A stretch of DNA of 64,000 nucleotides from Chiloscyllium plagiosum (lineage: Eukaryota). Each line of letters starts with the position of its first letter. Position 1 is the stretch's first letter. The translations under genes and the position numbers were made by a program. This document shows, piece after piece, positions 1,650-47,810 of the stretch. The notes beneath the pieces were generated by a model. The model saw nothing but the letters and a program-made list of their open reading frames with translations. It searched no databases and was not told the DNA's origin. The stretch is from positions 8,217,889 through 8,281,888 of the forward strand of contig NC_057752.1 in assembly GCF_004010195.1 (NCBI RefSeq), given 5' to 3'.

Positions 1650-3408
1650 ATAGAACACAGAACATTACAGTGCAGTACAGGACCTTCTGCCTTCGATGTT
1701 GCACCAACCTGTGGAACCAACCTGAAGCCCATCTATCCTACACTATTCCATTTTCATCCATGTTTATCCAATGACCATTTAAATGCCCTTAAAGTTGGTG
1801 AGTCTACTACTGTTTCAGGCAGGGCGTTCCATGCCCCTACTACTTTCTGAGTAAAGAAACTACCTCTGACATCTGTCTATATCTATCACCCCTCAATTTA
1901 AAGCTATGTCCCCTCGTGCTAGCCATCACCATCCAAGGAAAAAAGGCTCTCCCTGTTCACCCTATCTAACCCTCTGTTTATCTTATAAGTCTCAATAAGT
2001 CACCTCTCAACCTTCTTCTAACAAAAACAACCTCAAGTCCCTCAGCCTTTCTTCATAAGACCTTGCCTCCATACCAGGCAGCATCCTCATAAATCTCTTC
2101 TGAACCCTTTCCACAGCTTCCACATCCTTCCTATAATGCAGTGACCAGAACTGTACGCAATAACTCTGGTGCGGCCGCACTTGCAGTTTGTACAGCTGCA
2201 GTATGACCTCATGGCTCCAAACCTCAATCCCTCTACCAATAAAAGCTATCACACTGCATGCCTTCTTAAAAACCCTATCAACCTGGATGGCAACTTTCAG
2301 GGATCTATGTACATGGACACCGAGATTTCTCTGCTCATTTACACTACCAAGAATCTTACTATTAGCCCAGTATTCTTTATTCCGGTTGCTCCTTCCAAAG
2401 TGAATCACCTCGCACATTTCCACATTAAACTCTGTTTGCCATCTCTCAGACCACTCTACAGCTTATCCATGTCCCTCTGTAACCCCCAACATCCTTTGGC
2501 ACTATCCACAACTCCACCGACCTTAGTGTCATCCGTAAATTTACTAACCCATCCTTCTCTGCCCTCATCCAGATCATTTATAAAAATGACAAACAACAGT
2601 GGCCCCAAAACAGATCTTCGTGGTACACCACTAGTAACTGAACTCCAGGATGAACATTTCCCATCAACCACCACCCTCTGTCTTCTTTCAGCTAGCCAAT
2701 TTCTGATCCAAACTGCTAAATCACCCCCATTCCCATACCTGCATATTTTGTGCAATAGCTTACTGTGGAGAACCTTATCAAACGCCTTACTGAAATCCAT
2801 GTACACCACATCAACCAATTTACCCTCATCCACCTGTTTGGTCACCTTCTCAAAGAACTCAATAAGGTTTGTGAGGCACAATCTACCCTTCACAAAACTG
2901 TGTTGACTATCCCGAATCAACTTATTCCTTTCTCGATGATTATAAATCCTACCTTTTATAACCTTTTCCAACACTTTACCACAACCGAAGAAAGGTTCAC
3001 TGGTCTATAATTACTAGGATTGTCTCTACTCCCCTTCTTGAACAAGGGGACATTTGCTATCCTCCACACTTCTGGCACTATTCCTGTTGACAATGATGAC
3101 ATAAAGATCAAAACCAAAGGCTCTGCAATCTCCTCCCTTGCTTCCCAGAGAATGCTTGGATAAATCCCATCCAGCCCAGGGGACTTATCCATTTTCACAC
3201 TTTCCAGAATTGCTAACACATCCTTCTTGTGAACCTCAATCCCATCCAGTCTAGTAGCCTGTATCTCAGTATTCTCCTTGACAACATTGTCTTTTTTCAG
3301 TCTGAATACTGATGAAAAATATTAATTTAGCACTTGCCCTGTCTCCCGGGTCTCCATGCACAACTTCCCACTACTGCCCTTGATTGGCCCTAATCTTATT
3401 CTAGTCAT
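1650..3408 (-). mobile_element. CR1 LINE, degenerate RT and 3' end; continues at 5664..6039
   Basis: Frameshifted ORF pieces 2007..2423, 2456..2974 (MDFSKAFDKV, GVP..SVLGPLLF, KFTDDTK) and 2956..3219 (KSPGLDGI, NYRPV). Confidence 0.9.
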
Positions 3409-5654
3409 AATTCTATTAGATTTAAAATAATTATGGAAAAGGAGAGACCAGATCTAAAAGTTGAAGTTCTAAATTGGAGAAAGGCCAATTTTGACGGTAT
3501 TAGGCAAGAACTTTCAAAAGCTGATTAGGGGCAGATGTTCGCAGGTAAAGGGACGGCTGGAAAATGGGAAGCCTTCAGAAATGAGATAACGAAAATGCAG
3601 AAAAAGTATATTCCTGTTAGGGCGAAATAAAAGGCTGTTAGGTATAGGGAATGCTGGATGACTAAAGAAATTGAGGGCTTGGTTAACAAAAAGAAGGAAG
3701 CATATGTAAAATATAGACAGGATAGATCGAGTGAATCCTTAGAAGAGTATAAAGTAAGTAGGAGTATACTTAAGAGTGAAATCAGGAGGGCAAAAAGGGG
3801 ACATGAAATAGCTTTGATAATTAGAGTTGAGGAGAATCCAAAGGGTTTTTACAAATACATGAAGGACAAAAGGATAACTAGGGACAGAATAGGGCTCCTC
3901 AAAAATCAGCAAGGCGGCCTTTGTGTGTAGCCGCAGAAAATGGGGGAGATACTAAACGAGTATTTTGCATCAGTATTTACTGTGGAAAAGGATATGGAAG
4001 ATATAGAAAGTAGCGAAATAGATGGTGACACCTTGCAAAATGTCCAGCTTATAGAGGAGGAAGTGCTGGATGTCTTGAAATGCATAAAGGTGAATAAATC
4101 CCCAGGACCTGTACCTTAGAACTCTGTGGGAAGCTAGAGAGGCGATTGCTGGGCCTCTTGCTGAGATATTTGTGTCATCGATAGTCACAAGTGAGGTGCC
4201 AGAAGACTGGAGGTTGGCTAACGCGGTGCCACTGTTTAAGAAGGGTGGTAAGGACAAGCCAGGGAACTATAGACCAGTGAGCCTGACGTCGGTGGTGTGC
4301 AAGTTGTTGGAGGGAATCCTGAGGGACAGGACGTTCATGTATTTGGAAAGGCAAGGACTGATTCGGGATCGTCAACATGGCGTTGTGCATGGGAAATCAT
4401 GTCTCACAAACTTGATTGAGTTTTTTTGAAGAAGTAACAAAGAGCATTGATGAGGGCAGAGTGGTAGATGTGATCTATATGGACTGCAGTAAGGTGTTCG
4501 ACAAGGTTCCCCATGGCAGACTAGTTAGCAAGGTTAGATCTCACAGAATAAAGGGAGAATTAGCCATTTGGATACATAACTGGCTCAAAGGTAGAAGACA
4601 GAAGGTGGTGGTGGAGGTTTGTTTTTCAGACTGGAGGCCTGTGACCAGTGGAGTGCCACAAGGATCGGTGCTGGGTCCTCTACTTTTTGTCATTTACATA
4701 AATGATTTGGATGCAAGCATAAGAGGTACAGTTAGTAAGTTTGCAGATGACATCAAAATTGGAGGTGTAGTGGACAGCGAAGAAGGTTACCTCAGAGTAC
4801 AAAGGGATCTTGCTGAAGTGGGCAAATGGACTGAGAAGTGGCTGATGGAGTTTACTTCAGATAAATGCGAGGTGCTGCATTTTGAGAAAGCAAATCTTAG
4901 CAGGACGTATACACTTAATGGTAAGGTCCTAGGGAGTGTTGCTGAACAAAGAGACCTTGGAGTGCAGGTTCATAGCTCCTTGAAAGTGGAGTCACAGGTG
5001 GATAGGATAGTGAAGAAGGCGTTTGATATGCTTTCCTTTATTGGTCAGAGTATTGAGTACAGGAGTTGGGACGTCATGTTGAGGCTGGACAGGAGATTGG
5101 TTAGGTCACTGTTGGAATATTGCATGCAATTCTGGTCTCCTTCCTATTGGAAAGATGTTGTGAAACTTGAAAGGGTTCAGAAAAGATTTACAAGGATGTT
5201 GCCAGGGTTGGAGGATTTGAGCTATAGGGAGAGGCTGAACAGGCTGGGGCTGTTTTCCCTGGAGCATCAGAGGCTGAGGGGTGACCTTATAGAGGTTTAC
5301 AAAATTATGAGGGGCATGGATAGGATAAATAGACAAAGTCTTTTCCCTGGAGTGGGGGAGTACAGAATTAGAGGGCATAGGTTTAGGGTGAGAGGGGAAA
5401 GATATAAAAGGGACTAAAGGGGCAACATTTTCATGCAGAGGGTGGTACGTGTATGGAATGAGGGGCCAGAGGATGTGGTGGAGGCTGGTACAATTGCAAC
5501 ATTTAAGATGCATTTGGATGGGTATATGAATAGGAAGGGTTTGGAGGGATATGGGCCGGGTACTGGCAGGTGGGAGTAGATTGGGTTGGGATATCTGATC
5601 GGCATGGACAAGTTGGACCGGAGGGTCTGTTTCCATGCTGTACATCTCTATGAC
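3409..5654 (+). mobile_element. CR1 LINE, 5'-truncated, nested inside the minus-strand CR1
   Basis: RT motifs NYRPVSLTS, GVPQGSVLGPLLF, KFADD; flanked by 9-bp direct repeat tctagtcat (3400..3408, 5655..5663). Confidence 0.92.
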
Positions 5655-9759: not shown

Positions 9760-10360
9760 CAAATTGTAAATGGAGGCAATCCATGACAAATAGGCAGAAG
9801 CAGCAATTTAAAGTTAAGGGAGTTACATTAAACTTGTGTCAAACACTGGTTTGGCCACAGCTAGAGTGTTGTGTACAGTTCTGGGTGCTGCACTTTGGGA
9901 AAGATGTGAAAGCATTAGAGAGGATGTAGAAAACATTTATCCCAGGGATGAGGAACTTCAGTTGTTTAGATAGACTGGAGAAGTTGGTACTGTTCTCCTT
10001 AGAGAAGGTTAAGAGTAGATTTGATAGCAAAATTTAAAATTTGGGTGGTCTGGAAGAGTATGTATGAAAACAATGTTCCCATTAGTGCAAGGTTAGAGAA
10101 CAAACAGATTTAAAAGGTGATGAGCAAAAGAAGTAATAACATGACAAAACATTTTATCACACAGCGAGTAATTAGGATCAGGAACGCACTGACAGTCTGG
10201 TAGAGGCAGGTTCAATCAAGGCATTCAAGAGGGAATTACACCATTGTCTGGGAAGAAAGAACATGGAAGGTTACGGGGAGAAGTCAAGTGAGTGGCACGA
10301 GGTAAATTGCTCATAAATAGCTAACACAAACACAACGGGCCAAATTGCCGCCTCCTGCAC
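9760..10360 (+). mobile_element. Old CR1 LINE 3' fragment
   Basis: Degenerate LVWPQLECCVQFW segment and a CR1-type 3' tail. Confidence 0.7.
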
Positions 10361-13300
10361 TTCTGTGAAGTTGGTTGCATAACAGCCAGTACTAGCAAGT
10401 TATAAGGAACCAATTGATTTCATCTGCAGAAGTGGAAATCCAAAAAAAAAAGCTAGTAACTTGACTGAAAAATGTAGTTCATTCAACAGCATATACTGTA
10501 TATCCTTTGAATTGGTTAAATTTATGAAAAACAATGAAAACACAATCAGAAAAAAACTAAAAAAGACTTTGAAAATCTTTAATTTAATTGCACCACACAT
10601 ATTAGTATCCAACAGAAATACAATGTTTTAAAACTTTGTTCAGAAAGAGACAAGTCTTTCTACACAAAAAAAAATCCTTGGTTCATAAACTGCCCACAGA
10701 TAAGAAAATGGGTGTCCTTCACCCAGCCTTTGCTTATACTGCTCTGAAACTGGCTGCTGTTGGACATACAAGAACACCTCGGACAAACCCTCCTGCTACT
10801 GTCCCATACTTTGAATATGGCAAAATAGTTGGTCTCTGTTCAGCAACTTTCTTCAGTGATGTGGTTGAACTGGGGATTGTAGGTCAAAACTCATGTCCTC
10901 TATATGGAACATCTGTGTCCCTCTTTAGCAAGCAGAACAAATCAGTGTTAATTTAATCTGCCAGGAGACAGTGCACACATCTGTAGGAAAACATTCTACC
11001 TTCCAGTCTCCCAAATTTCATCCCCAACCTCCTCCAAATCAAACATTATAATTTAGTAACAGTGAATAAAGAACCAATACGTTTGAGTCACAACCACAGA
11101 TGGGACTTGCTTAAAACAGGGTACTTAGCAAACTGACCAGAATTATTCTGAATGCTTAAAACCACTAGATTGTCCTTCTTAAAGAATCTTGCCATCTAAA
11201 AAGGAATAGTTTATATTTCACACTATAAAAATGCTTACAGATCAACATTTAAAAAGTAAACTGATAACAAAAATGTAGTTATACACAGCACGGAGAAAAC
11301 TTATGTTTAATTTTCTCACAAATGTGATTTTAAAAAAACTTACACAATATCAATCAAGCAAGATACAGAAGTAAACTGGAAATTTAGGTTATTCTGGAGG
11401 TTCTTATCAGTGGGAAAGTTTAACTTTGAGAAATGGTATTACATGTCATACCCAAAAAGAAAAACACACCTAAAGACACAGTTCACTTGGCTCTATTCAG
11501 AAACAGTGTGAATTCATTCATTCTGGTCCTATTTTAATCCTAACAATAAGTGACAACACTGCTGTACATTCTTTGTCATATAATCTATATTTACATACAG
11601 TGGACGTCAATTGTCATCTTCAGATTTTCAATAAATCAGAACTTCTTTTCATGAACACCAGTATGCACACGAACAAGTTATCAGCATTAAAATTGAGGAA
11701 AACATGCTTAATGGACCACTTTCAAAAGTTGCACTAGAAGTCCTATTTTGAACATCTGTGAATTTAAGACCTGCCGACTGCAGTTAGACAATCTTGGCAC
11801 TGCACTTTACGCTGAAAAATCCCAGGGACTCAGAATAGTAAAGGGTTTACTGTATTTTGAGACTAAAATTTGTAAAAATTCATATTTCCCATGTTGCAGA
11901 CCCAAACTTCTCAGTGTTGGTTTTGGCTTCTTAATCCTTCCTTGAGTGCATTTTCTACATGGCTCCCCAGTTGATAGTAATGTAACCGTTATGTAAATAG
12001 AAATTCTCATGTCTAATTTTAGCAAGTTAGAAATCTGTAATAGAATCAAAATATTGAAAACATCTGAAAACAAAAAAAAAACTTGCAACAAGTTAAAATT
12101 TACTTGAAGCTAATAACTATACAGAAAATTTGGGAAACTGCAGTTTTTCTTAAACAAATTGGATGCAGGGCACAGGTTCATTTTCAGAATGCCATCTCTC
12201 CAATTGGGAGTACCATACTTTGCTTTGCACCTCCCTCAGATCGTCCAACCTATCATGCAGTAGAGGAAGTCATTGACATACCAATGTTGTCATTTGTTAA
12301 AGTGAAGAATCAAATGGGCACAATAATGTACTACTCATACAACTTCAAGTAGAAAAAAACTGCCAATATTTCACACATTGTATTCTATGTTATTTACTAC
12401 AGTACACTTTTATACCCTATGTATAATTGTAAGCCTTCCCCCCCCCCCCACCTTCCTCTGTCACTTTTCTACTCTCCTCACCCAATGGAATTGACACCAT
12501 GCTGAAGTATCATTCAACAAGGTGTCCGCTGGAACCTCATCCAAGTGGTTATCGTTCGGCTGAGTCTAGATACTGGAAGTCAGCAGGATATTCAACCAAG
12601 GGAAGGAAACATTACACTGGGCCAGATTCTGTCCCAGATTCTCTCCTCGTTCAACATCACAAATATTTTTAGTAGGGGTAGTTTGACATTACCATTCAAC
12701 ATACATTTACAATATGGATGACTAAAAAATATTTTAGTCATGTCATATACGTGTGCATATATAGCTACCTTCTATATATAGTAAGTTGTGGCTCTGTATG
12801 AATGTAGATGTTTCCTATTCTCTCTGATTGACTTTGCAGTTTTGTTACTACTGAATTGAAAACAAAAAGCAGTTGTACTGTTGTATACATTGGTGATGCA
12901 CCCTTGAAACCCTGATTAACAATGCAATTAGGTAAGTTTCTTGACGAGATGCAGAAATGGCACAGCGATCTACAAGTTTTGAACCTAGAACTTCGAAAAA
13001 TCACATGACAAAGATGACAATCCACAAACCTTTTCTTCACATCATCTGGTACAATGCTACTTTCAGCTATTAGTTAGTGAACACCCAGCTTCCACGCTTC
13101 AGGCATTAAGTATATGTTTGTTACATACAGTTTAGTTTGCCTCACCAACTTAAATCGTAGTACTGCAGCACTTTATAATCATTTTCATATCCTAAGAGGT
13201 TACAGTGGATATGTTTGTGATGAGAATGCTCATTTAGTTTTCTTTTTGCACTACAGAAGGTGTTTTATCTTCGGAGGGCTTGTACACTTTTGAAGGGAAA

Positions 13301-14858
13301 AGAAATGACAAGAGCAAAAAAAATGCTTTGGCCAGGAACTCTTTGTACAAAAACATAAAGGAAACATGGAACTTGATGACTTTTAAAAAAAAAGATACAA
13401 TTTTAATTACCAAAAGTAATTTCAACTAAATGCACATGTATCACCAAAAATTAACCCTCCAAGTGCTTTGAAACGGGATGGGTATAGAATGTCTATAAGC
13501 AAATATCAGAGAGATTTAAAACTAACCAAGTAAGCAATTTATTTATTTGTTTCTGATAACCTCAACTGTAATTCTAAATAAAGGAAAAATAGAACATTTG
13601 TGGCATACGATTGCTGGTAGAAAAAATAAAAATTATCAGTAATTAAAAAAGTGAATTTCATAAATTGTTGGAGAAGGGAAGAACAGGTAGTTTGCAATTT
13701 ATATTACATTAAATTATGTGCTTTGATAAAGACTGTCAATTCATTACTAATCTTAGAGCACACTTTTTTTGTTTAGTTTATGTAGAGTGAGTCTTACCAT
13801 CAGTACCCCAGGAAATAAAAAAAACAATTTTGTTGCTTCACAAAGCTCAATGTATTTTGAACTTTGAGAGCTCAAAGCTAAGGAACTGTGAACAAGAAAA
13901 CACAAGATAACTTAACGATCAGCAGTAGCTGGGAGGCATTAACCCAAGTTGCTTCAGTGATCGTATTTCAAATGTGTGCATGTTATGTTAGCCCCCTCTT
14001 GCTTCCAGATTCCCTGATGCTGCATTTAAGAGAGCCATTTTTGATTTTAAGTCCCTAACCCCCACCACTCCCCAAAAACGTTCGAGTAAAAAGTCCCATT
14101 TATATTACAGGGCAAAATATCTAGCAGAAGACAGTTATTCACCCGTCTTCATACCCTCCAATTACTGTCCTGACCACAATTAAAGCAGGATTTATTTTGG
14201 TGGTGGGGAGGGAGGGGAAACAAAATGATTTGTTTTTATTGCTGTAAAACAAAAACTCTGGATTTAAAGGTGATTTAAAAACAAGTAACTGCAGAACAGG
14301 CACAATCTTTTTTAACACAAGCGTTGTGTTTTTTTTAAACCGACTTTTTTGTGAAATTAAACCAATTTTACAGAAACAGACAGAGCAACCATAGTGCAGG
14401 CAAAACTATTCCAAGTGCAGCAGCAGGAGAGCTCAAGTTGGTCTGGGCATTGCAATGCGTTGTCAAAAACTTTGCTTTCATTAGTACCAGAGTTTACAGG
14501 GTGAGCAAACAAAAGCAAGACTTCTGCTGACACCAAGTTTTCAAAGCATTCAAAAACAAGGGTTCTGTTGGATTTTTTTTTTGAACATTTGCGACATACA
14601 TAGTGGCAAACTGAAGGGTGGTTTAACTTCAGTATGCTACTATTGCTGAGGTACAATTCTGTACAGGCAGTTTGCCAGTGAGTTCATAAGCCCGCACCAT
14701 TTGAGGCAGGAGTAAAAAGCATCCTCATTTCATAGTTTCGGCAAAGGGTTGCTGATGGTGAGACTCCCTCTTTAAGAATCATATTTAAACTCAATTTTCA
14801 CAATTTCCCTGGGAAGCAACAATGGGAAAATATTAATTTTTCATAAAATCTTCAAACC

Positions 14859-16505
14859 TCAACTCTCTTCTGCACGACAGAGGAACCTCATACTTTGGGA
14901 TGCATTTGGGTAACTGACCATTTGAGTGGTGGTATAACTCATGGCAATTCCTGGCAGTGATTGTGTAACTGCCACAGGTGTAGAGATAGCAAGTGGTGCC
15001 ATTGAAACTGGTGAAGTCATCCCCTGGACATAGGGTGCAGAGATAGAAGCGCTAAGACAAGGAGGACTTTGGGATGTGGCTTCAGAACATAATGCATTAT
15101 GAGCTCGAGCTTGCGCTATCAACTCTTGATGAGAAATGGGTTGTGATCTCAGTGTCTGGTTGCTCAGGGTGGTGTGAGTCTTTACTATGCTACGGTTATA
15201 ATTGGTAACAGTGTGCAAAGCTGGGTGTTGTGTTGGGTCAGCCCCAGTGTTCAGGATCCCCAACTTCACCTGCTTGCGCAGATCTGCATTTTGTTCCAGA
15301 AGGACCTCATTAGTCAGCATTAAGCTTGACACCTGCTTTTTGAGTTCTTCATTGCGCTTTCTGAGCATATGGTTTTCCTCCTCCAAAAAACTGAGTTCAC
15401 CTGGGCGCAGACTGGGAGTGCTGTAATCAAATACTTCAAAACGCAGGCCCTCCACCCTTCTCCTTTTCGGATGCTGGTCGTAATCACATCTCTCTGTCTC
15501 ATAGAGGTCATCCAAACGGTCATATCTACAAATCTCAGGAGAAAGTTCTCTATCTTGTGACGACACTCTTTCTACACTTTTTTTATCATTGTCATCACGT
15601 TTCAAATGCTGGAATTTACATTTGGATCCTCTTCGACATTTGCCCTTTAGAAAGTCACGACAAAATGGGATCTCCTTTGTAATAAGAGGAAGATTAGAGG
15701 GTGAAAGCCCAAAGGTCACAGCCACTGTCTGTTGCAAGTGAGCAGGAAGCTTTCCTGTTTTATTGTAATAATTCTCTTCCCCCTTCGTCCCGTGAATGAA
15801 TGTGCAGTTCTCACGGGTACATTTACTATTCTGAAAGTACTGACAAAAGATTGACTCATGCCGCATGTCACCCACATTGTAGGCCTCAACATTGTCCGGA
15901 TGAAAGTACCTGCAATTCTTACCACGGTTGCAGACATTGCGCAGAAAGTCACGGCAAACATTCCGCTTGCTCTTGCTCACCTCATATTTGCTATTATTGA
16001 CTAAATTATCAGCGTCATCACTTAGATCAGTGTGGTTGGTGACCTCAATATCATCTGGGTGAAAATACCTGCAATTCTTACCACGATTGCAGAGATTGCG
16101 CAGAAAGTCTCTGCAAATGTTCTGTTTGCTTTTGCCAGCCTCATCATTGCCAATATTCACTAAATTATCAGTGTCATTCCTTACATCAGTGAGGTCAGAA
16201 GCCTCAATGTCATCTGGGTGGATATACCTGCAATTCTTACCACGATTGCAGAGATTGCGCAGAAAGTCTCGGCAAATGTTCTGTTTGCTTTTACCAGCCT
16301 CGTCACTGGCAATGTTGACTAAATTATCAGTTTCGTTCCTTATTTCGGCAAGGTCGGAGGCCTCAATATCATCTGGGTGGAAGTACCTGCAATTCTTACC
16401 ACGGTTGCAGACATTGCGCAGAAAGTCTCGGCAAACATTCCGTTTGCTCTTGCCAGCCTCATATTTGCCGCTGTTGACTAAATTATCAGTGTCGTTCTCG
16501 GACAT
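14859..16505 (-). CDS. ZC3H10-like paralogue, 548 aa, with six CCCH zinc fingers (finger 1 present four times), KRRR motif and coiled coil
   Basis: Uninterrupted ORF, colinear with the ZC3H10 at 46608..47810 (CRDFLRNVC, FIHGTK, GLSPS, CRDFLKG.C.RGSKCKF, KRRRV.GLRFE, FLEEEN.MLRKR.EELKKQ, TNEVLLEQNA, ASQSMR); splice acceptor ttctttttcttttgcag just upstream, exon start 16553. Confidence 0.93.
   Translation of the reverse strand: MSENDTDNLVNSGKYEAGKSKRNVCRDFLRNVCNRGKNCRYFHPDDIEASDLAEIRNETDNLVNIASDEAGKSKQNICRDFLRNLCNRGKNCRYIHPDDIEASDLTDVRNDTDNLVNIGNDEAGKSKQNICRDFLRNLCNRGKNCRYFHPDDIEVTNHTDLSDDADNLVNNSKYEVSKSKRNVCRDFLRNVCNRGKNCRYFHPDNVEAYNVGDMRHESIFCQYFQNSKCTRENCTFIHGTKGEENYYNKTGKLPAHLQQTVAVTFGLSPSNLPLITKEIPFCRDFLKGKCRRGSKCKFQHLKRDDNDKKSVERVSSQDRELSPEICRYDRLDDLYETERCDYDQHPKRRRVEGLRFEVFDYSTPSLRPGELSFLEEENHMLRKRNEELKKQVSSLMLTNEVLLEQNADLRKQVKLGILNTGADPTQHPALHTVTNYNRSIVKTHTTLSNQTLRSQPISHQELIAQARAHNALCSEATSQSPPCLSASISAPYVQGMTSPVSMAPLAISTPVAVTQSLPGIAMSYTTTQMVSYPNASQSMRFLCRAEES
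15861..16496 (-). repeat. Coding tandem repeat, 4 x 159 bp (53 aa), each unit one C-x7-C-x5-C-x3-H finger plus linker
   Basis: cctgcaattcttaccacg recurs at 15909, 16068, 16227 and 16386, exactly 159 bp apart. Confidence 0.97.
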
Positions 16506-18451
16506 GATTCCAGATTATTTCTGCGCTACTCAGCCAAGGCTCTCAATAAACAACTGCAAAAGAAAAAGAAGCCAGTTCTTTTACAATGAACAAGAGATTA
16601 ATCTACAAAAGTAACTGTGGTTAATCCTTTTCTCACAAAACATTGTAGTTGTACCTATATTGTTGATTTTTTTAAAACATTAGGAGATGGCAGAAGTTTG
16701 ATAACAAAATGGAGAAGCAGTTTTATTTTGATCAGGAATTTACTATAGTAATGATGGCAAAATTGTCAGCTTTGCCATCATTTCCTTCTGTAACTGACAG
16801 CATTGTCTGAAATTCACATGTACAAAGGATAACATGGAAATTGAGAAGTTGCTATCAGTGATTTTGCATTCCTCCTCTGAAAGAACCATTTGTCTTTTCT
16901 CACTTTTAAAATGATAGGTATTAACGATTTACAGGTGCGTTTCTTTTCTTGATTATGTCAGTGGTACAACAAAATAAGTAATAATCGCTAATAAGATAAT
17001 TATTTTAAAAATGAATTCTTATTGCAATTATACTATAGGGATTTTGAAATAGAGACGTACAATCAGCAGTGGAAACAAACTACTGAAGAAACGTAAAGAA
17101 CAGAGAAAATGAAATGGTGGTGATTAAGCTCACCAGAGCAGAGTTCAGTCTACCCACAATTATACATTATTGTAGCAAATACTATGTAAAGGAATATTGC
17201 AAACCCAACCTTTCACTTTCCACATGAAATTCCATAAGAGCTTACGTCTAATCTACTGTATAAAATTCTGACAGCTAATCATTTCAGACTTGGTCCTCAA
17301 ATTCTAGATTTAAGAAAACAAAAACAAACCACTTTTAACACTTAACACCACAGCTACGAAGATAAACGTTTAACTTAAGTAGTAGGATGAGAATATCTCA
17401 GATGATTAAATGCATTCCTAAATTGCAAACTAGCATATTGCATATACACACAATCATGGCATGTTGAAATTTATATTCATTAAAGGGTCCGCGAGGAAAT
17501 ACTATTGATGGAATTTTATAGATGAACATACATGCTACAGTTTCTAATTCATAAAAGCTAATTTATGAAAACGCAACTGAAAATTTAATGCAAGCAATGT
17601 CGAATTAAGATAAAGTGTCAACTTAAGATTCAAAAGATTCAAAAATTAAACAAAATACAAACAACTCAATTTTCTTCAATATATTTAATATATAGTCAAC
17701 TTCATTGCAAGCTGCTATTGAAATAAAGGCTGGATTCTAATCCCATAATCCATATTACATTTACACATCAACTCTGACTTCAATCTACCTCCTTCACACT
17801 CTTTAATGAGGCAGTAAAACATAGTTCCTTCAATTTTTGCAAAATATTTCCTTCTTTCTAGAATCAAAATAATGGACACTTTTTGTCTTTGATAATCGGG
17901 GGGGGGGGGGAATGCTTTATTTGTTAAAAAAATGTTTTTACCTCACTCCTTCTGATTTCACATCTCCTTTATTGCTAAACTTGTTCCCAAGAATCAATTC
18001 CTCTTTCATGTCAAAAACCTTTTCATCCCTATTCCCATCCTTCAGCACCTCTTAACACTTTACATCTACCAGAAACTTGAGTACTGTTCCCACAATCTGA
18101 GAGGTGGGAAAGGGGATGACTTTTCTGACATTGTTCCAATTTCTAGGCACAAGGCAAAAACATCTTCCTGTCAGTTAGCCAACTGTCTTCACCCCATCAT
18201 CCTTTTAACAACCACAAATCTTAATGTTTATTAATATAGACCTTCTCTGAATTTTCTTTTGTTTTTCCAAAGCTCCAAACATGCAGTCTTCCTACATCTT
18301 TATTATTATTAATGCAAAGTTTATAACCCTGAATAATTAGATGTTTGTTTTTGATTGGCATACACTTGATGGGCCAAAGGACCTTTTTCTGTCTTGTCTA
18401 TCTTTCATGACTTGAAGCTCCTTGCTCTAATTAATTATTTCCAAGGACTTA

Positions 18452-18982
18452 GCCATAGATATGTACAGTACAGACCCTTTGGTCCAACTCGTCCATGCCG
18501 ACTAGATATCCTAAATTAATCTAGTCCCATTTGCCAGCACTTAGCCCATATCCCTCTAAACCCTTCCTATTCATATACCCATCCAGATGCCTTTTACATG
18601 TTGCAATAGTACCAGCCGCCACCACCACTTCTGGCAGCTCATTCCATACACGCACCACCATCTGCTTCAAAATGTTGCCCCTTGGGTCCCTTTTATATCT
18701 TTCCCCTCTCACCCTAAATCTATGCCATCTAATTCTGGACACCCCAACCCCAGGGAAAAGACTTTGTCTATTTACACCATCCATGTCCCTAATGATTTTA
18801 TAAACCTCTATAAGGCCACCCCTCAGCCTCCGACCCTCCAGGGAAAACAGCCCCAGCCTATTCAACCTATAGGTTAAATCCTCCAACCCTGGCAACATCC
18901 TTGTAACTTTTTTCTGAACCCTTTCAAGTTTCACAACATCCTTCCAGTAGGAAGGAGACCAGCATTGCACGCAATATTCCAT
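18452..18982 (-). mobile_element. CR1 LINE 3' fragment in the intron of the paralogue
   Basis: ORF 18521..18982 MEYCVQCWSP...RRLRGGLIEVYKI...VVRVWNELP. Confidence 0.88.
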
Positions 18983-21162
18983 TCAAAAGTATTAATTTTT
19001 TATCTTTCATTCTTTGATCCAATTATTACATGCGGGTTAACCTCAGCTTTTCCAATTTCTGTGGTGTCCCATTTAAGGAGACTTAGTGGCCAAGTTCTTA
19101 ACGTTAGAAAATGATCTTGATTTGCACGTTTTATTTGCATTCAAGAATATGGGTCTGATAGCAGCACGTCATTGAAGATAGGAAGTAGTGAATAGCTTTT
19201 ATTTTAATTTATGCTACCATAGCACAAAGTGACAATTATCTAAAACACAAACTGATTTAGTTGCAAAGATATATATATAACTTATCGGTTTAATGCCTCA
19301 AAAGTTCATACAAGAACGCCTCAATTATCTGTCAAATTGCTTCAAAATCAGTTTATCAAACTTTTTTTTGAAAGAAAAAAGGTCCCAAATAATGAATACA
19401 GGTATTGAGTAAAGGAACAGCATGGCTTCCTGCACTGAATACATTTGCCAAGATAATGTTGACAAGTGCCATCAGGCAAAGTTACAAAGGCTGCACTTTT
19501 GGGAGTTCCAATCTTTCAGTTCAGCTCCAAAATTTCTGGTCCAGTTTTTTTGATATCTGAATGAATTTTAATGTTATTATGAAAGACAGGAAGGACATAA
19601 CTTTACTATGTTTTCACCCCCAAGAACTACAGATGGGACAGTATTTTGTACTCCATCTATGTCCTCAGGATTACTGTTTCTTTAAATATAACATAGTGAT
19701 TCAGTCCAGTCAAACAGCATAACAATCAAATCATTCTGCCCATCACTACCAACTGAGTACACAAATGGAAGTTATGATGTCGTACTGAGGAATCAGACAG
19801 GATAATATAGTCCCAGGTTCATCCACAATTTGCATTAATTCTTTTTAAAATCAACCAGGGCAGCAGTGGAGGAATAAAATAAACATACCTCGATAATTCA
19901 AATTAAACTAAAAGCAAGAGTTCTAACCTGACCACTATTAAAAAAAGTGTACACATGAATATGCAGCAAAGACAGGATTAAGCTTGGCAATGTGTTTCTA
20001 CCATTGAATAGTTATCAATACCACCTCAGGATGAGTCATTATCTTTAGGTGCAAGGGGATATAACTGGGCACGACAGAAGGAAAAACAGGATTTTTAGAA
20101 TCATCTCTAAGAATTTTCACACTATAGGGTGCAAGTCAACAATAACTACAAATAGGACGAGTTGTAAAGTTATCTGACATCCAAAGGAGAAAAATGAAAA
20201 ATTTACCCTCCCTCATACCTTTGATTGATCAACTAAAAAACTTACTGCTTTCTCCTGCTCTTGCTCTTGAATGGCAAAACATAGAGCGATCTACAAAGAA
20301 TAATAATATTTGGAAATAATTTTCAGTAATTGTCATTTTTAAAAACAAAAATCACATAATTAGAGTTTTTGTTTTAAAAAGATTCCAATGGTTTAGTAGA
20401 CAAATGTACTAACTGTGTGGCAATAAAGCACGTTTCAGTTTCAATCATTATTTTATTCAAACTGGATTGGAGAATCCATGTCAATGAAGTATAAAACGAA
20501 AGGGGGGGGGGGGGGGGAAGCTTAGGTAGCATGTCGATATTCTAGACTCAGATTTAAAAACAAAGATTGGTGTATTTCTCGCCACTTGGAAAAAAATGCC
20601 AGAAATTGAGCAGTCTTAATACTGTACAGGTCATGTTACCCACAAGAAAAATCGTTTCTGCATGAAGCCAACGGGATGAAGCGGTTTCAAATAATATTTC
20701 AACGATAAATTTGAACCAAAATTCTTTTGTGTCCCATACTTGAAAACGGTGTTTTCGGTATCCTTTAGATGCTCTTGCCTTAGATTTTCATTTAGATTGT
20801 TTTGTGTTCAATCAATCAATTCCTTGCTTTCATGCCAGTTATAACATAATAATATTACTGGACACGAATTCCTTCATTCCGAAGAACAAATCCGTTCTTA
20901 GGCCTACCGGAATTCTGACAGAAACTCGCACGAAATCGCACTGTTGACAGCTCTGGTGGCGGAAAGTTCTCGAACTTGCTACGAGGCTTCATTACACTCT
21001 AGGCCTCAACGGATTTACTCAAAATGATGCAACTGTCGGCGTATAAATAGAAGTAGGGAACTTTTTTAAAAAAAAAGTAACTACAGAAATAAATAATTAC
21101 ACTCAACCAATCCCGGAATAAGACCGATATATAAAAATAGAAAGAAACAGGGCCACATTTAC

Positions 21163-21242
21163 CTACACGGTGTAAGCCTTTTTTTATCCTCTAAGTCCTC
21201 CAAGCACAACGAATATGGACTCGGGTCCTCCGAGACAAGAGC
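21163..21242 (-). other. Putative non-coding first exon of the ZC3H10 paralogue (5' boundary uncertain), in a CpG-enriched region
   Basis: Minus strand gctcttgtctcggagga...atattcgttgtgcttggagga...accgtgtag|gtaaat is homologous to 33485..33569 and ends at a GT donor. Confidence 0.7.
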
Positions 21243-22005
21243 ACCCGTTGAAGACGCTATTGAAACCAGTCTACAGCCATTGTTTAATGAACAGTAACCG
21301 CTCAGCAAACGTTTCCCATCTTATCACAAACTTTCCTTTTTGTTCTTTCTTCCCCGACTTCGATATTTCCTTAAAACGTTTAAGATATTTAACTTTTTTC
21401 AGTTCTGAACAAAGGTCTTTGACCTGAAACGTGAATTCTCTATCTACAGACACTGCCAGAACTCTCAGAATCACTATGAAGCTGAAGGAGGCCATTCGGC
21501 CCATCCTGCCGCCACCACCACATTGCCACGCAGTGCACTTCATAGCATAACTAACTCGCTGTGTCAAAAAAATCACATCGCCCTTGCTTTATTTGCATAT
21601 CACTTTAAATCTATGCCATCGTTCTTTTTCTCTATGAGCAGGAACAGCTTCTCCCTATCCACTCTGTCTCCGCCCCGTCATAATTTTTAAACTGCAAGGG
21701 GAACAGTACCAACGTTTCCAATCCATCCTCATAACTCACCTACAGATTTACACTCAGTGCCACGTACATATTTTCGACATTTCTGTTCAGTAGTACTGCA
21801 TCACAATTCCATTTCATCTTTCACCTCTTACTTTTCAACAATGGCTTTTTTTCCTTTTAAGTGTGAGGGTATCATAAGCTTTAACAACTGATGGATACTG
21901 ACACCCTTCTGGATTCATCTCTTTCCATTTCTTTGACTCCATCCCTCCTTCCAGATTTCCAGAAGGCATTTAATAAAGGGCCATGTAAAACATTATTGTA
22001 GAAAA

Positions 22006-30079: not shown

Positions 30080-31780
30080 AGAAAGGCTTTGTGCGTGGGC
30101 AATTGTGTCTTACTAAATTAATTGGATTTTTAAAAGAAGTGATTGGTATGTGTATGGAATGAGCTGCCAGAAGAAGTGGTGGAGGCTGGTACAATTGCAA
30201 CATTTAAAATACATTTGGATGGGTATACGAATAGGAAGGGTTTGGAGGGATATGGGCCGGGTGCTGGCAGGTGGGACTAGATTGAGTTGGGGTATCTGAT
30301 CGGTATGGACGGGTTGGACCGAAGGATCTGTTTCCATGCTGTACATCTCTAAGACTATGACTCTATGGTGAAGAGGATTAATGAAGGCAGAGCAGTGAAC
30401 ATTGTCTATGCAGACTTCATTAAGGCGTTCGACAAGGTTCACATGGTAGATTGGTTGACAAGAGCTGAAAATGTGTTGCTGGAAAAGCGCAGCAGGTCAG
30501 GCAGCATCCAAGGAACAGGAGAATCGACGTTTCGGGCATAAGCCCTTCAGGTTAGATCATGTCAAATACAGGGATAACGAGCCATTTGGATACAAAATTG
30601 GCTCAAAGGTAGGAGACAGAGGGTTTTGGTAGAGGGTTGTTTTTCGGACCGGAGGCCTGTGACCAGTAGTTTGCCACAAGGACCAGTGCTGGGTCCACGG
30701 CTTTTGTCATTTATATAAATGATTTGGATGTAGATACAAGAGATATGTTTAGTAAGTTTGCAGATGACACCAGAATTGGTGGTGAATGGACAGGTAAAAA
30801 CAATGACTGCAGATGCTAGAAATCAGATTCTGTATGAGAGTGGTGCTGGAAAAGCACAGCAGTTCAGACAGCATCCAAGGAGCAGTAAAATCAATATATC
30901 GGGCAAAAGCCCTTCATCAGGAATACCTGTGTAATGGACAGTGAAGAAGCTACCTCAGAGTACAACGGGACCGTGATCACATGGGCCGAGGAGTGGCAGG
31001 TAGAGTTTAATCTAGGTAAATGTGAGGTGTTACATTTTGGTAGGGCAAATCAGGGCAGGACTTATACACTTAATGGTAAGGTCCTTGGGAGTTTTGCCAA
31101 ACGAAAAGACCTTGGAGTGCAGGATCATAGTTTCTCGAAAGTGGTAGACAGAGTAGTGAAGAAAGCGTTTGGTGTGCTTGCCTTTATTGGTCAGTGCATT
31201 GAGTTTGGGAGCTGGGAGGTCATGTTGCAGCTGTATAAATCATTGGTATGGCCACTTTTGGAATACTGCGTTCAATTCTGGTCTCCCTACTGTTGGAAGG
31301 ATGTTGTGAAACTTGAAAGGGTTCAGAAAAGATTTACAAGGATGTTGCCAGGGTTGGAGGGTTTGAGCTATAGGGAGAGGGTGAATAGGCTGGAGCTATT
31401 TTCCCTGGTCTGTTGGTGGCTGAGGGGTGACCTTATCAAGGTTTATAAAATCTTGAGAGGCATGAATCAGGTGAGTAGCCAAGGTCTTTTCCCCAGGGTA
31501 GGGGATTCTAAAACTAGATGTCATGGGGTTAAGGTGAGAGGGGAAAGATTTAAAAGGGACCTTAGAAGCAACATTTTCATGTGGTGTGTGTATGGAATGA
31601 ACTGCCAGAGGAAGTGATGGAGGCTGGTATAATTACAGCATTTCAAAGGCATCTGGATGGGTATACGAATAGGAAGGGTTTTGAGGGATATGGGCCAAAT
31701 GGGACTAGATTAATTTAGGATATCTAGTTGCATGAACGAGTTGGACTGAAAGGCCGGTTTCTGGCCTAAATATCTCGATG
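30080..31780 (+). mobile_element. CR1 LINE RT and 3' end with nested insertions (CR1 tail ~30145..30365; short hammerhead-family elements ~30462..30548 and 30794..30932)
   Basis: KFADDT and ORF 30934..31617; insert 30794..30932 flanked by aatggacag (30785..30793, 30933..30941). Confidence 0.85.
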
Positions 31781-33484: not shown

Positions 33485-33563
33485 GCTCTTGTCTGGGAGG
33501 AGCTTTTTTTTGATACTCGTTGTGTTTGGAGGAGTGAAGGAGTGAAAGAGCTGAACCGTGTAT
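33485..33563 (+). other. Putative non-coding first exon of ZC3H10 (5' boundary uncertain; donor at 33560 GTATGT or 33564 GTAAAT)
   Basis: CpG-enriched context, reverse CCAAT (attgg) at 33471, homology to the minus-strand block 21157..21242. Confidence 0.7.
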
Positions 33564-44589: not shown

Positions 44590-46607
44590 TATTTCATCTT
44601 TGCTGATGTAGCCTTCCTATAACTGGGCACCATAAACTACCACAAAGTACTCCAACTGCAGTCTGACTAATGTCTTATGCAAGTTTAACACATCTCCTTA
44701 TTTTGGTGTTTGATACTTCTAATTATAAAACCCAAGAATTTGTGTTTTCCTTTTTATTCATGATGTTCGTGAAACTGATAATATTTTCAGTGAATGCCTG
44801 CAGTATCAAGGTTTTTTACATAAATAAATGTACTTCAACTTGTTGAAATAGCTGTTTCTCATTGAATAATTTATGTATATTCAGAATATTTTCAATTTAC
44901 ATACTTTTTCCCCTCAAAGTAATACTGTTCCCTCTACAAATATCTTCTGCATCAGTTGTCATGATCCCAATGTCTATGGCTAAATGGAGTTTTACTGATG
45001 CCACCTTTTGTTAATATTGATCGGTTTGTGATAAATGAAATAAGTTAGAGCTCTGTGATACTGGCCCAGATACACTGGTAAGGAATTACTTTTAGCTTTG
45101 TGTTATCAAAACGGGGAATGAGCTTTGTCATCAGTGTCACTTTCTGGGTAGGGGATGATGAAAGAACAACACTGAAAATGATTTTTCACACCTGCACTAC
45201 TTTAATAATCTTATAATTTTCAGCTGTGTACATTATTCATTTCAGTGGCCATCATTTGGAGCTTTCAGTCCATTCATTATTGACTATCAAAGGCACACAA
45301 GGTTCTGGCAAACAGATACCCTAAAAAAAATGGTATCAAAGTTCTGAATTTCATCAACTGCATTTTGTTTTCAAACAAACATTCCTGGCAAAAGTAATTT
45401 CTACTCTTGTCTTTCCAATCACTGTCCATTTTCACCTTTTCACTTTCTTGTATGTCATCTCATTATGTTTCTAGTTCTGTGATACTTTCAATTTTTTTTG
45501 TTTCTTTGGGTTCACATTTGTTTAGTATGATTGCAAGTATTGGATTCCACCACCAACCCCCACCACTATCTGTCTCAAGTGCTGACTCTCTTGCTGGGGT
45601 ACTTATGCATTATCTTCTTTACCAAATTGTGGGCATTCTTTACGTGCTAGTCAGGGTAATAATGAATGACCCTTACAAATGCTGGGATCAAAGGTGATAC
45701 CAAGCATTGTGGTCCCAAAGCTCTCATGTATATTTTCCAGTAGAGGTCACAGAGTTGAAATTCGAAGTGAAAACTCTCGCTTTTTTTTGTTTTCTGGATT
45801 GCTAAAAGCCATAGTCAACAATTCTTTCCAGGCAAGCAGGTGTAGTTTGTACTTTGGTCAATGAGTCAGGTACTCTTATTTATTTTTTTCAGTTTTCTCC
45901 CATCCCAATACCCAGAATTGTTTCTACACTGAGAAAAGAAATACGTCTTCCTCACTTCCATTAGTGATACTTTGAAGTGTGTGAAAGCTATATATTATGA
46001 ATTACTCTCTGATACTTCTGAAAGTATGCATGTACATTGAATGTGGTTAAGTTAATTCATGATAAAGTCTAAATCTTGGAGTTGTTTTGAAAGAAGCAAT
46101 TTTTATTTACTTTACATAACTGCATCTATATGAAATGTATCTCAGACTAATGAAGTAAATTTCTTTTTGTTCTTTGGTGATATCTAAAATGATGTAGGTT
46201 TGGCAAACCTCGGGCAAGTTTGCAATGAACATAAGCCAAGCACAAAATAACCTATAATTTATTACAATCCATACTTATCATTCCCCAACTCCGCCAAGGG
46301 ATCAGTGATGAAAGTGTGACTCTGGTACAGTAGGAGGTAGACTTCCGAAGTTGTAGTGAAGCCACATTGTGAGGAAGCATGTGGTACAACTAACCTAGTA
46401 ATGTTTGTTGCTGACTCTGGGCACATTTAGAAACCTTTTTCAATTCCATTACAATCATTGCTTAGCTTGCTGAGTACCAATTACAGTGGTTCAGGTAACA
46501 CTTAGCTTGTGGACTAATTCCTCCTTCTCTGTAAAGACATACCTTGATTTTCTTTTTCAGATGTTTTTGTGTACAGTGGCTGAGAAGCACAGAAATAGTC
46601 TGTGAAG

Positions 46608-47810
46608 ATGCCGGATAAAGATAATTTATTTAACAGTGGTAATGACGAGGCTGGCCACAGCTCAGATGATATTTGCCGAGACTTCCTGCGCAATGTCTGC
46701 AAACGTGGTAAGCGCTGCAAGTTCTATCACCCTGATATTAATGAAGTGTCTGACTTGGGCGTAAAGAAAAATGAATTTGTCTTTTGTCATGACTATCAGA
46801 ACAAGGAGTGCACTCGCATCAACTGCAAGTTTATTCATGGGACAAAGGAGGATGAGGAACATTATAAAAAGTCAGGAGAGCTTCCCCCACGCCTGCGCCT
46901 GACAGTGGCCATGGGTCTTGGCCTTTCGCCATCTGACCTCTCTTTTAAAAAAGGTGAGGTCCCAATTTGTCGTGACTACTTGAAAGGTGACTGTCAACGA
47001 GGATCTAAGTGTAAATTCCGGCACTTAAAACGTGATGAATATGAATATGAAAACAGAACTTTGGAGAGATTGTCACGAGACCAAGTGATTTCTCCTGTAG
47101 TGCGTCGATATGACCCATTTGATGACCTCTATGACACTGATCGCTATGTAGATTATGACCATGTTCTCAAGAGACGAAGAGTTGATGGCTTGCGATTTGA
47201 GAGTTATGATTTTAATATCCCAAATTCGCGTCCAGTTGACTATCGGTTTCTGGAGGAGGAGAATCTGATGCTTCGAAAGCGTATTGAGGAACTCAAAAAA
47301 CAGATCTCAAATTTAATGGCAACTAATGAGGTACTTTTGGAGCAAAATGCACATTTCCGCAACCAAACCAAGGTGGTCACGCTGACCTCCACTCCCACAG
47401 CAACAGAGCAAACACTGGCAGCACCAACTGTGGGTGCAATCACCAATTACAACCATGGAATAGCACAGACTCACACCACTTTGAGCAGCCAAGCGCTTCA
47501 ACCGCGACCTGTCACCCAGCAAGACCTGGTGGCAACTGCTGGAGCTACTGCTGCACCACCTGCTAACGCTGCACCAACAGCACAGCATCTTAATCCTGAG
47601 ATTGCTTCACTTCCTGCAGCGCTTGCCCAGACCATTGCCCAGGGGATGGCGCCTCCAGTCTCTATGGCCCCAGTGGCTGTTTCTGTTGCACCAGTGGCAG
47701 TGTCAATTGCACAAGCAATGCCAGGAATCACTATTAGCCATGCCACCACTCCAATGGTTACTTATCCAATTGCATCACAGAGTATGAGGATAACAGCAAT
47801 TCCTCACTGA
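46608..47810 (+). CDS. ZC3H10: Zinc finger CCCH domain-containing protein 10, 400 aa, single coding exon
   Basis: MPDKD start, three CCCH fingers (CRDFLRNVCKRGKRCKFYH, CHDYQNKECTRINCKFIH, CRDYLKGDCQRGSKCKFRH), coiled coil LEEENLMLRKRIEELKKQ, C-terminus MVTYPIASQSMRITAIPH; acceptor ttttctttttcag ends at 46560. Confidence 0.96.
   Translation: MPDKDNLFNSGNDEAGHSSDDICRDFLRNVCKRGKRCKFYHPDINEVSDLGVKKNEFVFCHDYQNKECTRINCKFIHGTKEDEEHYKKSGELPPRLRLTVAMGLGLSPSDLSFKKGEVPICRDYLKGDCQRGSKCKFRHLKRDEYEYENRTLERLSRDQVISPVVRRYDPFDDLYDTDRYVDYDHVLKRRRVDGLRFESYDFNIPNSRPVDYRFLEEENLMLRKRIEELKKQISNLMATNEVLLEQNAHFRNQTKVVTLTSTPTATEQTLAAPTVGAITNYNHGIAQTHTTLSSQALQPRPVTQQDLVATAGATAAPPANAAPTAQHLNPEIASLPAALAQTIAQGMAPPVSMAPVAVSVAPVAVSIAQAMPGITISHATTPMVTYPIASQSMRITAIPH

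Follow-up and report, generated by a model that had tools for sequence, protein, structure and literature searches.

A 64,000-nucleotide stretch of the Chiloscyllium plagiosum genome (contig NC_057752.1, positions 8,217,889 to 8,281,888; here termed the window, to which positions refer unless a contig is named) carries a paralogue of ZC3H10 with six CCCH zinc fingers. The gene is real, old, and constrained, and the explanation that best accounts for the locus, together with the mechanism proposed below, is that it is a functional, spliced, protein-coding ZC3H10 paralogue common to sharks, rays, and skates, which we consider probable. The coding sequence (CDS; 14859..16505, minus strand) starts with an ATG and extends in a single exon through 548 codons, with zero internal stops, to the stop codon at 14859-14861, and its same-length orthologues are 84-100% identical. 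It is the longest of 10 open reading frames (ORFs) of at least 150 amino acids (aa) in the window; at the base composition of the window, the chance of 548 open codons is ~1.3e-16, or ~1.7e-11 across all frames and starts.

The canonical ZC3H10 gene is encoded on the plus strand of the same window (CDS 46608..47810, 400 aa, three fingers), in head-to-head orientation with the six-finger gene and with 30.1 kb between the two start codons. The proteins share 195/394 identities by BLASTP (49%; E 5e-126), align colinearly, with the 548-aa protein covered from residue 164 through its C-terminal end, and both match CCCH-finger families in Pfam. The canonical window protein falls in the same 90%-identity cluster as a Chiloscyllium protein, with the skate protein at 93% and that of Callorhinchus at 77%. 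The first-pass annotation of this DNA had described a stop-free frame of 548 aa, colinear with and roughly half identical to a ZC3H10 gene 30 kb away, with six CCCH fingers and all zinc ligands retained; these features agree with the values above, and with the six motifs and 24/24 ligands found here. It had also argued for an intact, functional gene, and the lack of stops, the purifying selection, and the conserved orthologues described below confirm that the gene is not decaying. Its count of a "second" ZC3H10 gene was too low, given that this genome holds at least five genes of the family.

The six CCCH motifs are comprised of four ZF1-type fingers, followed by a single ZF2-type and a single ZF3-type finger. 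The ZF1-type fingers reside in four tandem units of 53 aa or 159 bp (U1 to U4, residues 4-215; 15861..16496, minus strand), each with an acidic head, a C-x7-C-x5-C-x3-H finger, and an acidic tail. These units were delineated from Tandem Repeats Finder output (period 159 bp, 3.9 copies, 84% matches, no indels, 15881-16497), a direct-repeat family, and orthologue comparison, and they occupy 16338-16496 (U1, aa 4-56), 16179-16337 (U2), 16020-16178 (U3), and 15861-16019 (U4, aa 163-215), all on the minus strand. A doubling of the three-finger set was rejected as an account of the six fingers, which are finger 1 four times plus fingers 2 and 3. The fourth unit and the adjoining ZF2-type finger (C221-x7-C229-x4-C234-x3-H238; 15792..15845, minus strand) constitute the ancestral ZF1-ZF2 pair. 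Opposite the repeat units, a repetitive 165-aa ORF without a Pfam match is present on the plus strand (16117-16614), which we take to have arisen incidentally, the reverse complement of the units being free of stops.

Downstream of this array the protein follows the order of parts of canonical ZC3H10: ZF1, ZF2, a Ser-Pro (SP) site, ZF3, KRRR, a leucine zipper, and a C-terminal low-complexity domain. Functional sites were transferred from human and mouse numbering via a 434-aa marmoset sequence. By this route, R231 is the equivalent of human R89 and is invariant in 18 orthologues, and S268-P269 (15699..15704, minus strand; both residues invariant in the 18 orthologues) would, by alignment, be the counterpart of the S126-P p38 site of mouse Zc3h10, at which position the marmoset protein reads GLGLS126P. 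The ZF3-type finger (C282-x7-C290-x5-C296-x3-H300; 15606..15662, minus strand) has invariant ligands and coincides with the best stretch for Pfam zf_CCCH_4 (282-300). It is followed by KRRR (K347-R350; 15456..15467, minus strand), the counterpart of the mapped nuclear localization signal (NLS), which in human spans 205-213 and reads PGPKRRRGG in the marmoset sequence; K347 and R348 are invariant in the 18 orthologues. The leucine-zipper or coiled-coil segment (aa 371-416; 15258..15395, minus strand) has a column identity of 0.966 and is highly similar to the canonical zipper. The Ser/Thr/Pro/Ala-rich C-terminal domain (14862..15257, minus strand) is colinear with that of the canonical protein, but its terminal motif differs, with a different fixed end (..MRFLCRAEES versus ..MRITAIPH).

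The structure of the gene also matches that of canonical ZC3H10, in which the entire CDS lies in the last exon and an intron in the 5' untranslated region (UTR) ends ~47 nt before the ATG. In the six-finger gene, the coding exon begins at 16553, 48 nt before the ATG, after a pyrimidine tract and CAG acceptor (16554..16610, minus strand; AG at 16554-16555). In canonical ZC3H10 (46561..47810, plus strand), the acceptor CAG at 46558-46560 precedes a 47-nt part of the 5'UTR. The 5'UTR parts of the two genes (16506..16553 on the minus strand for the six-finger gene, with an in-frame TGA and TAA between exon start and ATG) are identical at 35/48 positions, and the intron next to the acceptor at 37/54, falling to 8/31 further upstream. 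The homology of the acceptor, the 5'UTR, and ~55 nt of intron indicates a duplication at the level of genomic DNA that included the intron. A processed retrocopy is ruled out by this intron end shared with the parent gene, and no flanking direct repeats were found in 10000-22000.

Weak hints of transcription come from sequencing contigs, none of the 20 runs containing the locus being recorded as RNA. In three studies that the run search guesses to be RNA (X14, X18, and X19), contigs extend unbroken from 11000 to ~16410-16553 and then drop to 0-6, and contigs of run X12 carry on through the intron past 16553. One X18 contig has a match ending exactly at 16553, with 27 further letters unaligned, and by itself hints that the shared acceptor is used in the six-finger gene. 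The contig pattern is a weak hint of a terminal exon containing the CDS and a probable long 3'UTR of at least 3.8 kb (11000..14858, minus strand), with contigs continuing beyond 11000; an X19 contig of 5324 nt reaches 409 nt past that position. Stretches upstream of 16680 that lack coverage in X14, X18, and X19 count for no more than this weak hint of an intron.

Two annotated isoforms from Hemiscyllium ocellatum (X1 and X4) differ in the array. One starts at M214, without all four finger-1 units, and the other retains units 1-3 and part of unit 4 and ends after five other residues. If these isoforms are real, splicing would give both array-less and array-only proteins.

Proteins of the same architecture are annotated in at least 17 named species of sharks, rays, and skates, including galeomorph and squalomorph sharks, with identities of 84-100%. 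In protein searches, four of them ranked ahead of every canonical ZC3H10 protein: Heptranchias perlo (93%, 548 aa), Pristiophorus japonicus (88%, 557 aa), Narcine bancroftii (85%, 545 aa), and a Logan protein (85%, 512 aa). The next match after the orthologues was a canonical bird ZC3H10, with 49% identity over 69% of the query. The 90% cluster of the window protein has 19 members, and those listed are records named "zinc finger CCCH domain-containing protein 10-like" from sharks (Chiloscyllium punctatum, Scyliorhinus torazame, S. canicula, Cetorhinus maximus, Stegostoma tigrinum, Heterodontus francisci, Mustelus asterias, and Hemiscyllium ocellatum) and rays (Mobula birostris, M. hypostoma, Hemitrygon akajei, Hypanus sabinus, and Pristis pectinata); a Rhinoraja longicauda orthologue is a member of the Narcine cluster. 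Four units are present in 17/18 orthologues, 16 of which keep the exact 53-aa period, and Pristiophorus has a 10-aa insertion in U4.

Among 214 relatives whose CCCH motifs were counted, 170 have three, and five or six occur exclusively in this elasmobranch clade, such that the definition of the ZC3H10 family by exactly three fingers does not hold for the six-finger protein. From Callorhinchus, protein searches returned canonical ZC3H10 and no six-finger protein, which is an absence at the level of annotation rather than of the genome. The first-pass annotation had termed the paralogue lineage-specific, and this description stands at the level of Elasmobranchii or deeper and fails at any narrower level, given the number of species. 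It had also named wide occurrence and an existing description of the paralogue as grounds for refutation, and of these the wide occurrence is borne out: the gene is already predicted in RefSeq under the automatic name "ZC3H10-like". The literature covered, which leaves subscription journals outside, yielded no description of a six-finger ZC3H10 paralogue, and the gene appears never to have been studied.

Constraint on the six-finger gene is apparent at several levels. Mean column identity across the 18 orthologues is 91%, with regional values of 0.89-0.998 and the maximum in ZF2. For the zinc ligands (24 positions in 18 proteins), 428/432 cells are kept and 0 are changed, the remaining 4 being gaps from a unit missing in Pristis. 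Orthologues were compared as proteins, and the ratios of nonsynonymous to synonymous substitution (dN/dS) derive from comparisons between units and between paralogues: 0.09-0.27 between the four units of the window gene (dS 0.42-2.46), and 0.27 between the six-finger and canonical genes, for which dS exceeds 1 and is saturated. The occurrence of same-length open frames in 17 shark and ray species cannot be neutral.

The units themselves record the age of the array. In a tree of 83 single units, grouping is by position, with 7 label changes where 5 is the fewest possible and shuffling gives 51 on average. Units at the same position are 0.85-0.93 identical across species, and those at different positions 0.62-0.78; the Pristis units correspond to U1, U3, and U4. 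As the units group by position and not by species, the quadruplication is older than the split between sharks and rays, and little homogenization has followed.

Other residues changed before becoming fixed. The alignment of 19 canonical jawed-vertebrate ZC3H10 proteins has 124 invariant columns, of which the paralogue keeps 80, varies at 27, and is fixed to another residue at 17 (defined as the same non-canonical residue in all 17 six-finger rows). Six of these re-fixed positions are in or beside ZF1 and ZF2: R36N in ZF1, K54R and N55H in the ZF1-ZF2 linker, and H61Q, D62Y, and E67K in ZF2. At the C-terminal end, conserved but different in the paralogue, type II sites include I395 to F541 and T396 to L542 (canonical to paralogue). 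The changes in ZF1 and ZF2 form the pattern that would be expected for an altered binding specificity.

With the six-finger gene included, this genome has at least five members of the ZC3H10 family; four lie within ~150 kb and the fifth on another contig. A three-finger sibling of 279 aa (L003 1429-2268, equivalent to ~8.1167-8.1175 Mb of the same contig, minus strand) lies ~116 kb from the six-finger gene; it has the zipper, is without the C-terminal domain, and is 61% identical to the canonical protein. Its orthologues (279-282 aa; 16 sequences, all named "ZC3H10-like") are found in sharks, rays, and skates. A two-finger sibling of 217 aa, also with the zipper (L004 1432-2085, or ~8.1482-8.1488 Mb of the same contig, minus strand; ~85 kb from the six-finger gene), has fingers 1 and 3 and is without ZF2, its linker, and the C-terminal domain; its cluster contains 13 sequences of 177-229 aa from sharks and rays. 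The fifth gene encodes 311 aa with fingers 1 and 3 and the full C-terminal domain (L005 1339-2274, or ~25.397 Mb of contig C40, plus strand). Its GC content at third codon positions is 0.89, compared with 0.41-0.62 in the other family genes, a pyrimidine tract and CAG acceptor are preserved ~58 nt upstream of its ATG, and its 90% cluster is restricted to orectolobiform sharks (5 sequences). All five family members keep the LEEEN..LLEQNA zipper. Shark-to-ray identity is 86-89% for the six-finger gene, 93% for the canonical gene, 92-95% for the three-finger sibling, and 96-99% for the two-finger sibling, the most conserved of all.

The two siblings on the home contig (of 279-282 and 217-229 aa across species) resemble the six-finger gene in strand, in location (within ~120 kb), in belonging to one clade, in their zipper and their conservation in sharks and rays, and in carrying no name besides "ZC3H10-like". 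They differ in that both lost the C-terminal domain, and the two-finger sibling ZF2 as well, whereas the six-finger gene kept all of these parts and gained three fingers. Two short ZC3H10-like fragments, at 8170536-8170670 of the same contig (minus strand, 2 stops) and at 4952430-4952765 of contig C15 (L008, 4 stops), are probably decayed copies. In the skate Rhinoraja longicauda, one contig is annotated with a pair of 397-aa canonical ZC3H10 proteins that differ slightly, which may represent a recent tandem duplicate of the canonical gene.

We analyzed the phylogeny of the family with maximum-likelihood trees (LG+C20; 41, 59, and 28 rows) rooted on hagfish ZC3H10 and a Lottia homologue. All vertebrate copies, paralogues included, formed one clade (support 100/100) with Lottia and distant homologues outside it, and the six-finger protein lies inside this vertebrate ZC3H10 clade. 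The six-finger sequences are themselves monophyletic (100/100), with internal branching that resembles the species tree. They join the three-finger sibling with support of 92/81 to 93/84, and the two-finger sibling joins this pair at 98/97 to 99/98. The six-finger stem has a length of 0.63-0.65, about five times the shark-to-ray path within the clade (0.12-0.13); the corresponding canonical path is 0.07, and between sharks and rays the six-finger gene evolves ~1.8 times faster than the canonical gene. The contrast between a long stem and a short crown path points to a burst of change followed by stasis.

Alternative placements were compared by the approximately unbiased (AU) test on a hand-chosen 28-row subset (5 of 18 six-finger rows, 4 of 7 and 3 of 6 sibling rows, 2 of 3 rows of the 311-aa gene of contig C40, 3 of 5 canonical rows from cartilaginous fishes, 7 of 14 from bony vertebrates, and 4 of 6 outgroup rows). 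As the groups were chosen with the first tree already in view, and some of the branches are long, the p values call for a cautious reading. Forcing all elasmobranch copies together with Callorhinchus outside cost 10.5 log-likelihood units (p-AU 0.023) in this subset and 7.7 units (p-AU 0.048) in a separate test, and the duplication probably predates the split between elasmobranchs and chimaeras, on the chondrichthyan stem or earlier.

How much earlier bears on one of the competing accounts, according to which the six-finger lineage and its two short siblings are an old vertebrate paralogue, and no invention of cartilaginous fishes, that diverged ahead of the jawed-vertebrate crown and later disappeared from bony vertebrates and chimaeras. 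A topology with the paralogue clade outside every canonical gene of jawed vertebrates, which unites the bony and cartilaginous canonical genes, costs just 0.17 log-likelihood units (p-AU 0.367), the backbone among the hagfish, bony, chondrichthyan canonical, and paralogue clades has supports of 36-47, and the paralogue stands at a similar distance (46-51%) from the ZC3H10 proteins of shark, chimaera, bird, and coelacanth. The best trees nevertheless recover a single clade of all the copies from cartilaginous fishes as the sister group of bony vertebrates, if weakly (42/70 and 36/41). Tandem copies within ~150 kb of the canonical gene are expected from local rather than whole-genome duplication, more than three fingers occur in no bony-vertebrate protein among the 214 relatives (one chimeric record excepted), and a long stem branch can mimic age; we regard an origin this early as rather unlikely. 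At the other extreme, a recent duplicate confined to this species, a pseudogene in decay, a retrocopy, or a repeat assembly artefact could be suspected from the 49% identity to a neighboring gene and from an internal repeat of the sort prone to mis-assembly. Each was rejected, and together they are exceedingly improbable. Orthologues occur in the species of sharks and rays enumerated above, 548 codons are without stop or frameshift and the zinc ligands without a change, the low dN/dS between units is not that of a pseudogene, the intron end is shared with the parent, and unit-specific residues are conserved between species. In addition, each unit has its own contig of 170-174 nt with 0-1 differences in the independent runs X14 and X18, tiling 15921-16553, which argues against an assembly artefact.

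A different kind of competing account concerns function, in which the paralogue would be mainly a partner or antagonist of canonical ZC3H10, forming heterodimers in which the extra finger array with its acidic linkers alters, titrates, or blocks DNA or RNA targeting by the canonical protein, instead of choosing multi-motif RNAs of its own. The zipper, present throughout the family, is the best-kept long segment between the paralogues, and DNA binding by mouse Zc3h10 needs the basic leucine zipper (bZIP) region and not the fingers (PMC6911170). A structural model of the canonical and six-finger zippers, run on single sequences, gave in-register parallel pairing with a score of 0.62 compared with 0.02 for the best of 3 controls; the mark used is reached by 51/78 solved complexes and by 2/108 mismatched pairs. 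Runs agreed in at least 67% of contacts, with a partner pLDDT (predicted local distance difference test) of at least 66, and homologous heptads were paired (e.g., canonical 229 with six-finger 388, an offset of exactly three units). A passing zipper model does not, however, tell which family member binds. The retention of all zinc ligands in all four ZF1-type fingers, with dN/dS of 0.09-0.27, argues that they bind in their own right and are no passive tail, and surface residues of ZF1 and ZF2 that were replaced and then frozen suggest a new specificity. A role chiefly as partner or antagonist appears unlikely.

The preferred explanation, a functional paralogue that binds nucleic acid in its own right, draws on what is known of ZC3H10 in mammals. 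ZF1 and ZF2 are the RNA-binding fingers of mouse Zc3h10 (Treiber 2017, as cited in PMC6911170), its bZIP-like region can bind DNA in the absence of the fingers, and p38 MAPK phosphorylates S126 (PMC6911170). A fragment of ZC3H10 containing the fingers and coiled coil selects the RNA motif AGUGCAG / GCAGCG (PMC11612968), and the DNA motifs TYCCNG/TTTC have been attributed to ZC3H10 (PMC6911170; PMC13375009). Repression of interferon-stimulated genes requires each of the three fingers, the NLS at 205-213, the coiled coil at 234-280, and R89 (PMC13375009).

In the account that we favor, the gene originated when ZC3H10 was duplicated at the DNA level together with its intron boundary. In the burst of change that came next, new residues were fixed on the surfaces of ZF1 and ZF2 and at the C-terminal end, and the 53-aa finger-1 unit was then multiplied to four copies. 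These steps precede the shark-ray split, after which strong purifying selection has acted on the gene. The protein appears to retain every element mapped as functional in mammalian ZC3H10 (ZF1-ZF2, ZF3, the SP phosphosite, KRRR, the zipper, and the C-terminal domain), and it is therefore expected to be a nuclear, zipper-dimerized regulator that binds nucleic acid. The ancestral ZF1-ZF2 module may have a shifted specificity, and the three extra ZF1-type fingers, on acidic linkers of ~32 residues, would add weak sites for short GC-containing RNA elements. The result would be avidity for RNAs with several closely spaced motifs, with up to 12 fingers per dimer. As the zipper is nearly unchanged among family members, pairing with canonical ZC3H10 and with the two- and three-finger siblings is also possible. 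Higher-valency nucleic-acid binding had already been suggested in the first-pass annotation, and both the extra fingers and the fixed surface changes in ZF1 and ZF2 fit that suggestion, as an argument from architecture.

Several observations weigh against this explanation or narrow it. The Pristis pectinata orthologue (495 aa) is annotated with three units, U2 being missing, which may reflect either a true loss by unequal crossover or a collapsed assembly repeat; unless the record is such a collapse, four units are not strictly required everywhere. The valency mechanism is read from the arrangement of the fingers, and an AlphaFold2 full-length model on the 18-sequence alignment (mean pLDDT 32.6; predicted template modelling score 0.19; only the helix at 368-420 near 60) is uninformative as to whether the extra fingers would be independent beads or packed together. 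The zipper model indicates compatibility rather than pairing in cells, given the likeness of coiled coils to structures already solved and the fact that proteins closely related to a true partner pass as well. Transcription is suggested by annotation and by the faint coverage pattern described above. Finally, the literature is split on whether ZC3H10 fingers act on RNA or DNA (PMC6911170; PMC13375009), and "RNA" may be too narrow a term for the targets.

Profile comparison also related the fingers to other CCCH proteins. Residues 180-238 (U4 and ZF2) match the two-finger domains of MBNL1/2 by profile (E 1.5e-6 to 1.2e-3), proteins that likewise use several CCCH fingers and that recognize GC steps in RNA. 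Compared by sequence, this similarity is weak and limited to the fingers, the six-finger protein is not a family member, and MBNL proteins have two finger pairs and no zipper. Chains of CPSF4/Yth1 match the unit array (E 5.6e-5 to 4e-3). The arrays of CPSF30/Yth1 and of Unkempt, which has six CCCH fingers, contain five to six fingers, several of which each read a few nucleotides. Those fingers are dissimilar and of old origin, whereas in the present array four near-identical copies of one finger, on long acidic linkers, were built into a protein that already had three fingers.

The remainder of the window was searched for neighboring genes and repeats. Between the head-to-head ZC3H10 genes, two CpG-rich patches in CpG-poor surroundings (20600-21700 and 33300-34000; observed/expected ~0.9-1.3, with ~0.9-1.2 in the former, which is without strand assignment) are candidate promoters or first exons, the former a candidate for the six-finger gene; no 400-nt segment of the 64-kb window combines GC of at least 0.5 with an observed/expected CpG of at least 0.6. 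A tblastn search of the window with bird and mammal read-through proteins (containing parts of PA2G4 or ESYT1) matched nothing besides the two ZC3H10 genes. PA2G4 is a neighbor of ZC3H10 in mammals, as judged from read-through protein records, and PA2G4-matching exons are located on the same contig at 6416624-6440316 (minus strand), ~1.7 Mb from the ZC3H10 cluster. No Rfam family reached its gathering score in the entire window.

Retrotransposon remnants occur at 4479-5417 (plus strand), 18521-18982 (minus strand), and 30934-31617 (plus strand) and have a common C-terminal ...LERVQK.FTRMLPGLE... stretch; the ORF at 4479-5417 matches RVT_1 (E 9e-21). In each of the four runs compared with the window, contig depth climbs to 5e4 to 4e5 over 18348-19015, marking a very abundant repeat. 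Three ORFs of 231-324 aa (39011-39985, plus strand; 43380-44102, minus strand; and 2211-2906, plus strand) have no Pfam match at E <= 0.001 and probably derive from transposable elements. A ..YIGQTGR.. stretch in the ORF at 43380-44102 may be akin to the GIY-YIG nucleases that Penelope-like elements encode.

ZC3H10 is regarded as a regulator with three fingers, involved in thermogenesis, mitochondria, pri-miRNA processing, and interferon-gene repression, with disputed roles on RNA and DNA. The six-finger gene adds a new architecture to this known family, within an unremarked five-gene expansion, and does not amount to a new kind of system. The grouping of five distinct genes under a single automatic name, "ZC3H10-like", will lead to confusion in shark and ray orthology tables and expression studies. 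A bolder and less likely reading is that these genes constitute an ancient elasmobranch ZC3H10 family, older than the shark-chimaera split, in which mixed dimers formed via an interchangeable zipper would give a "valency series" of members with 2, 2, 3, 3, and 6 fingers. Should this be correct, the mix of dimers would set the number of RNA (or DNA) motifs read per complex, with the six-finger member specialized for reiterated GC-type motifs; no other vertebrate group is known to have such a ZC3H10 network. The elasmobranch versions share one zipper scaffold, carry either one or four copies of the RNA-binding finger 1, and either have or lack finger 2. They have been stable for a very long time, and they offer a natural test of the contribution of each finger and of the effect of finger number on target choice.

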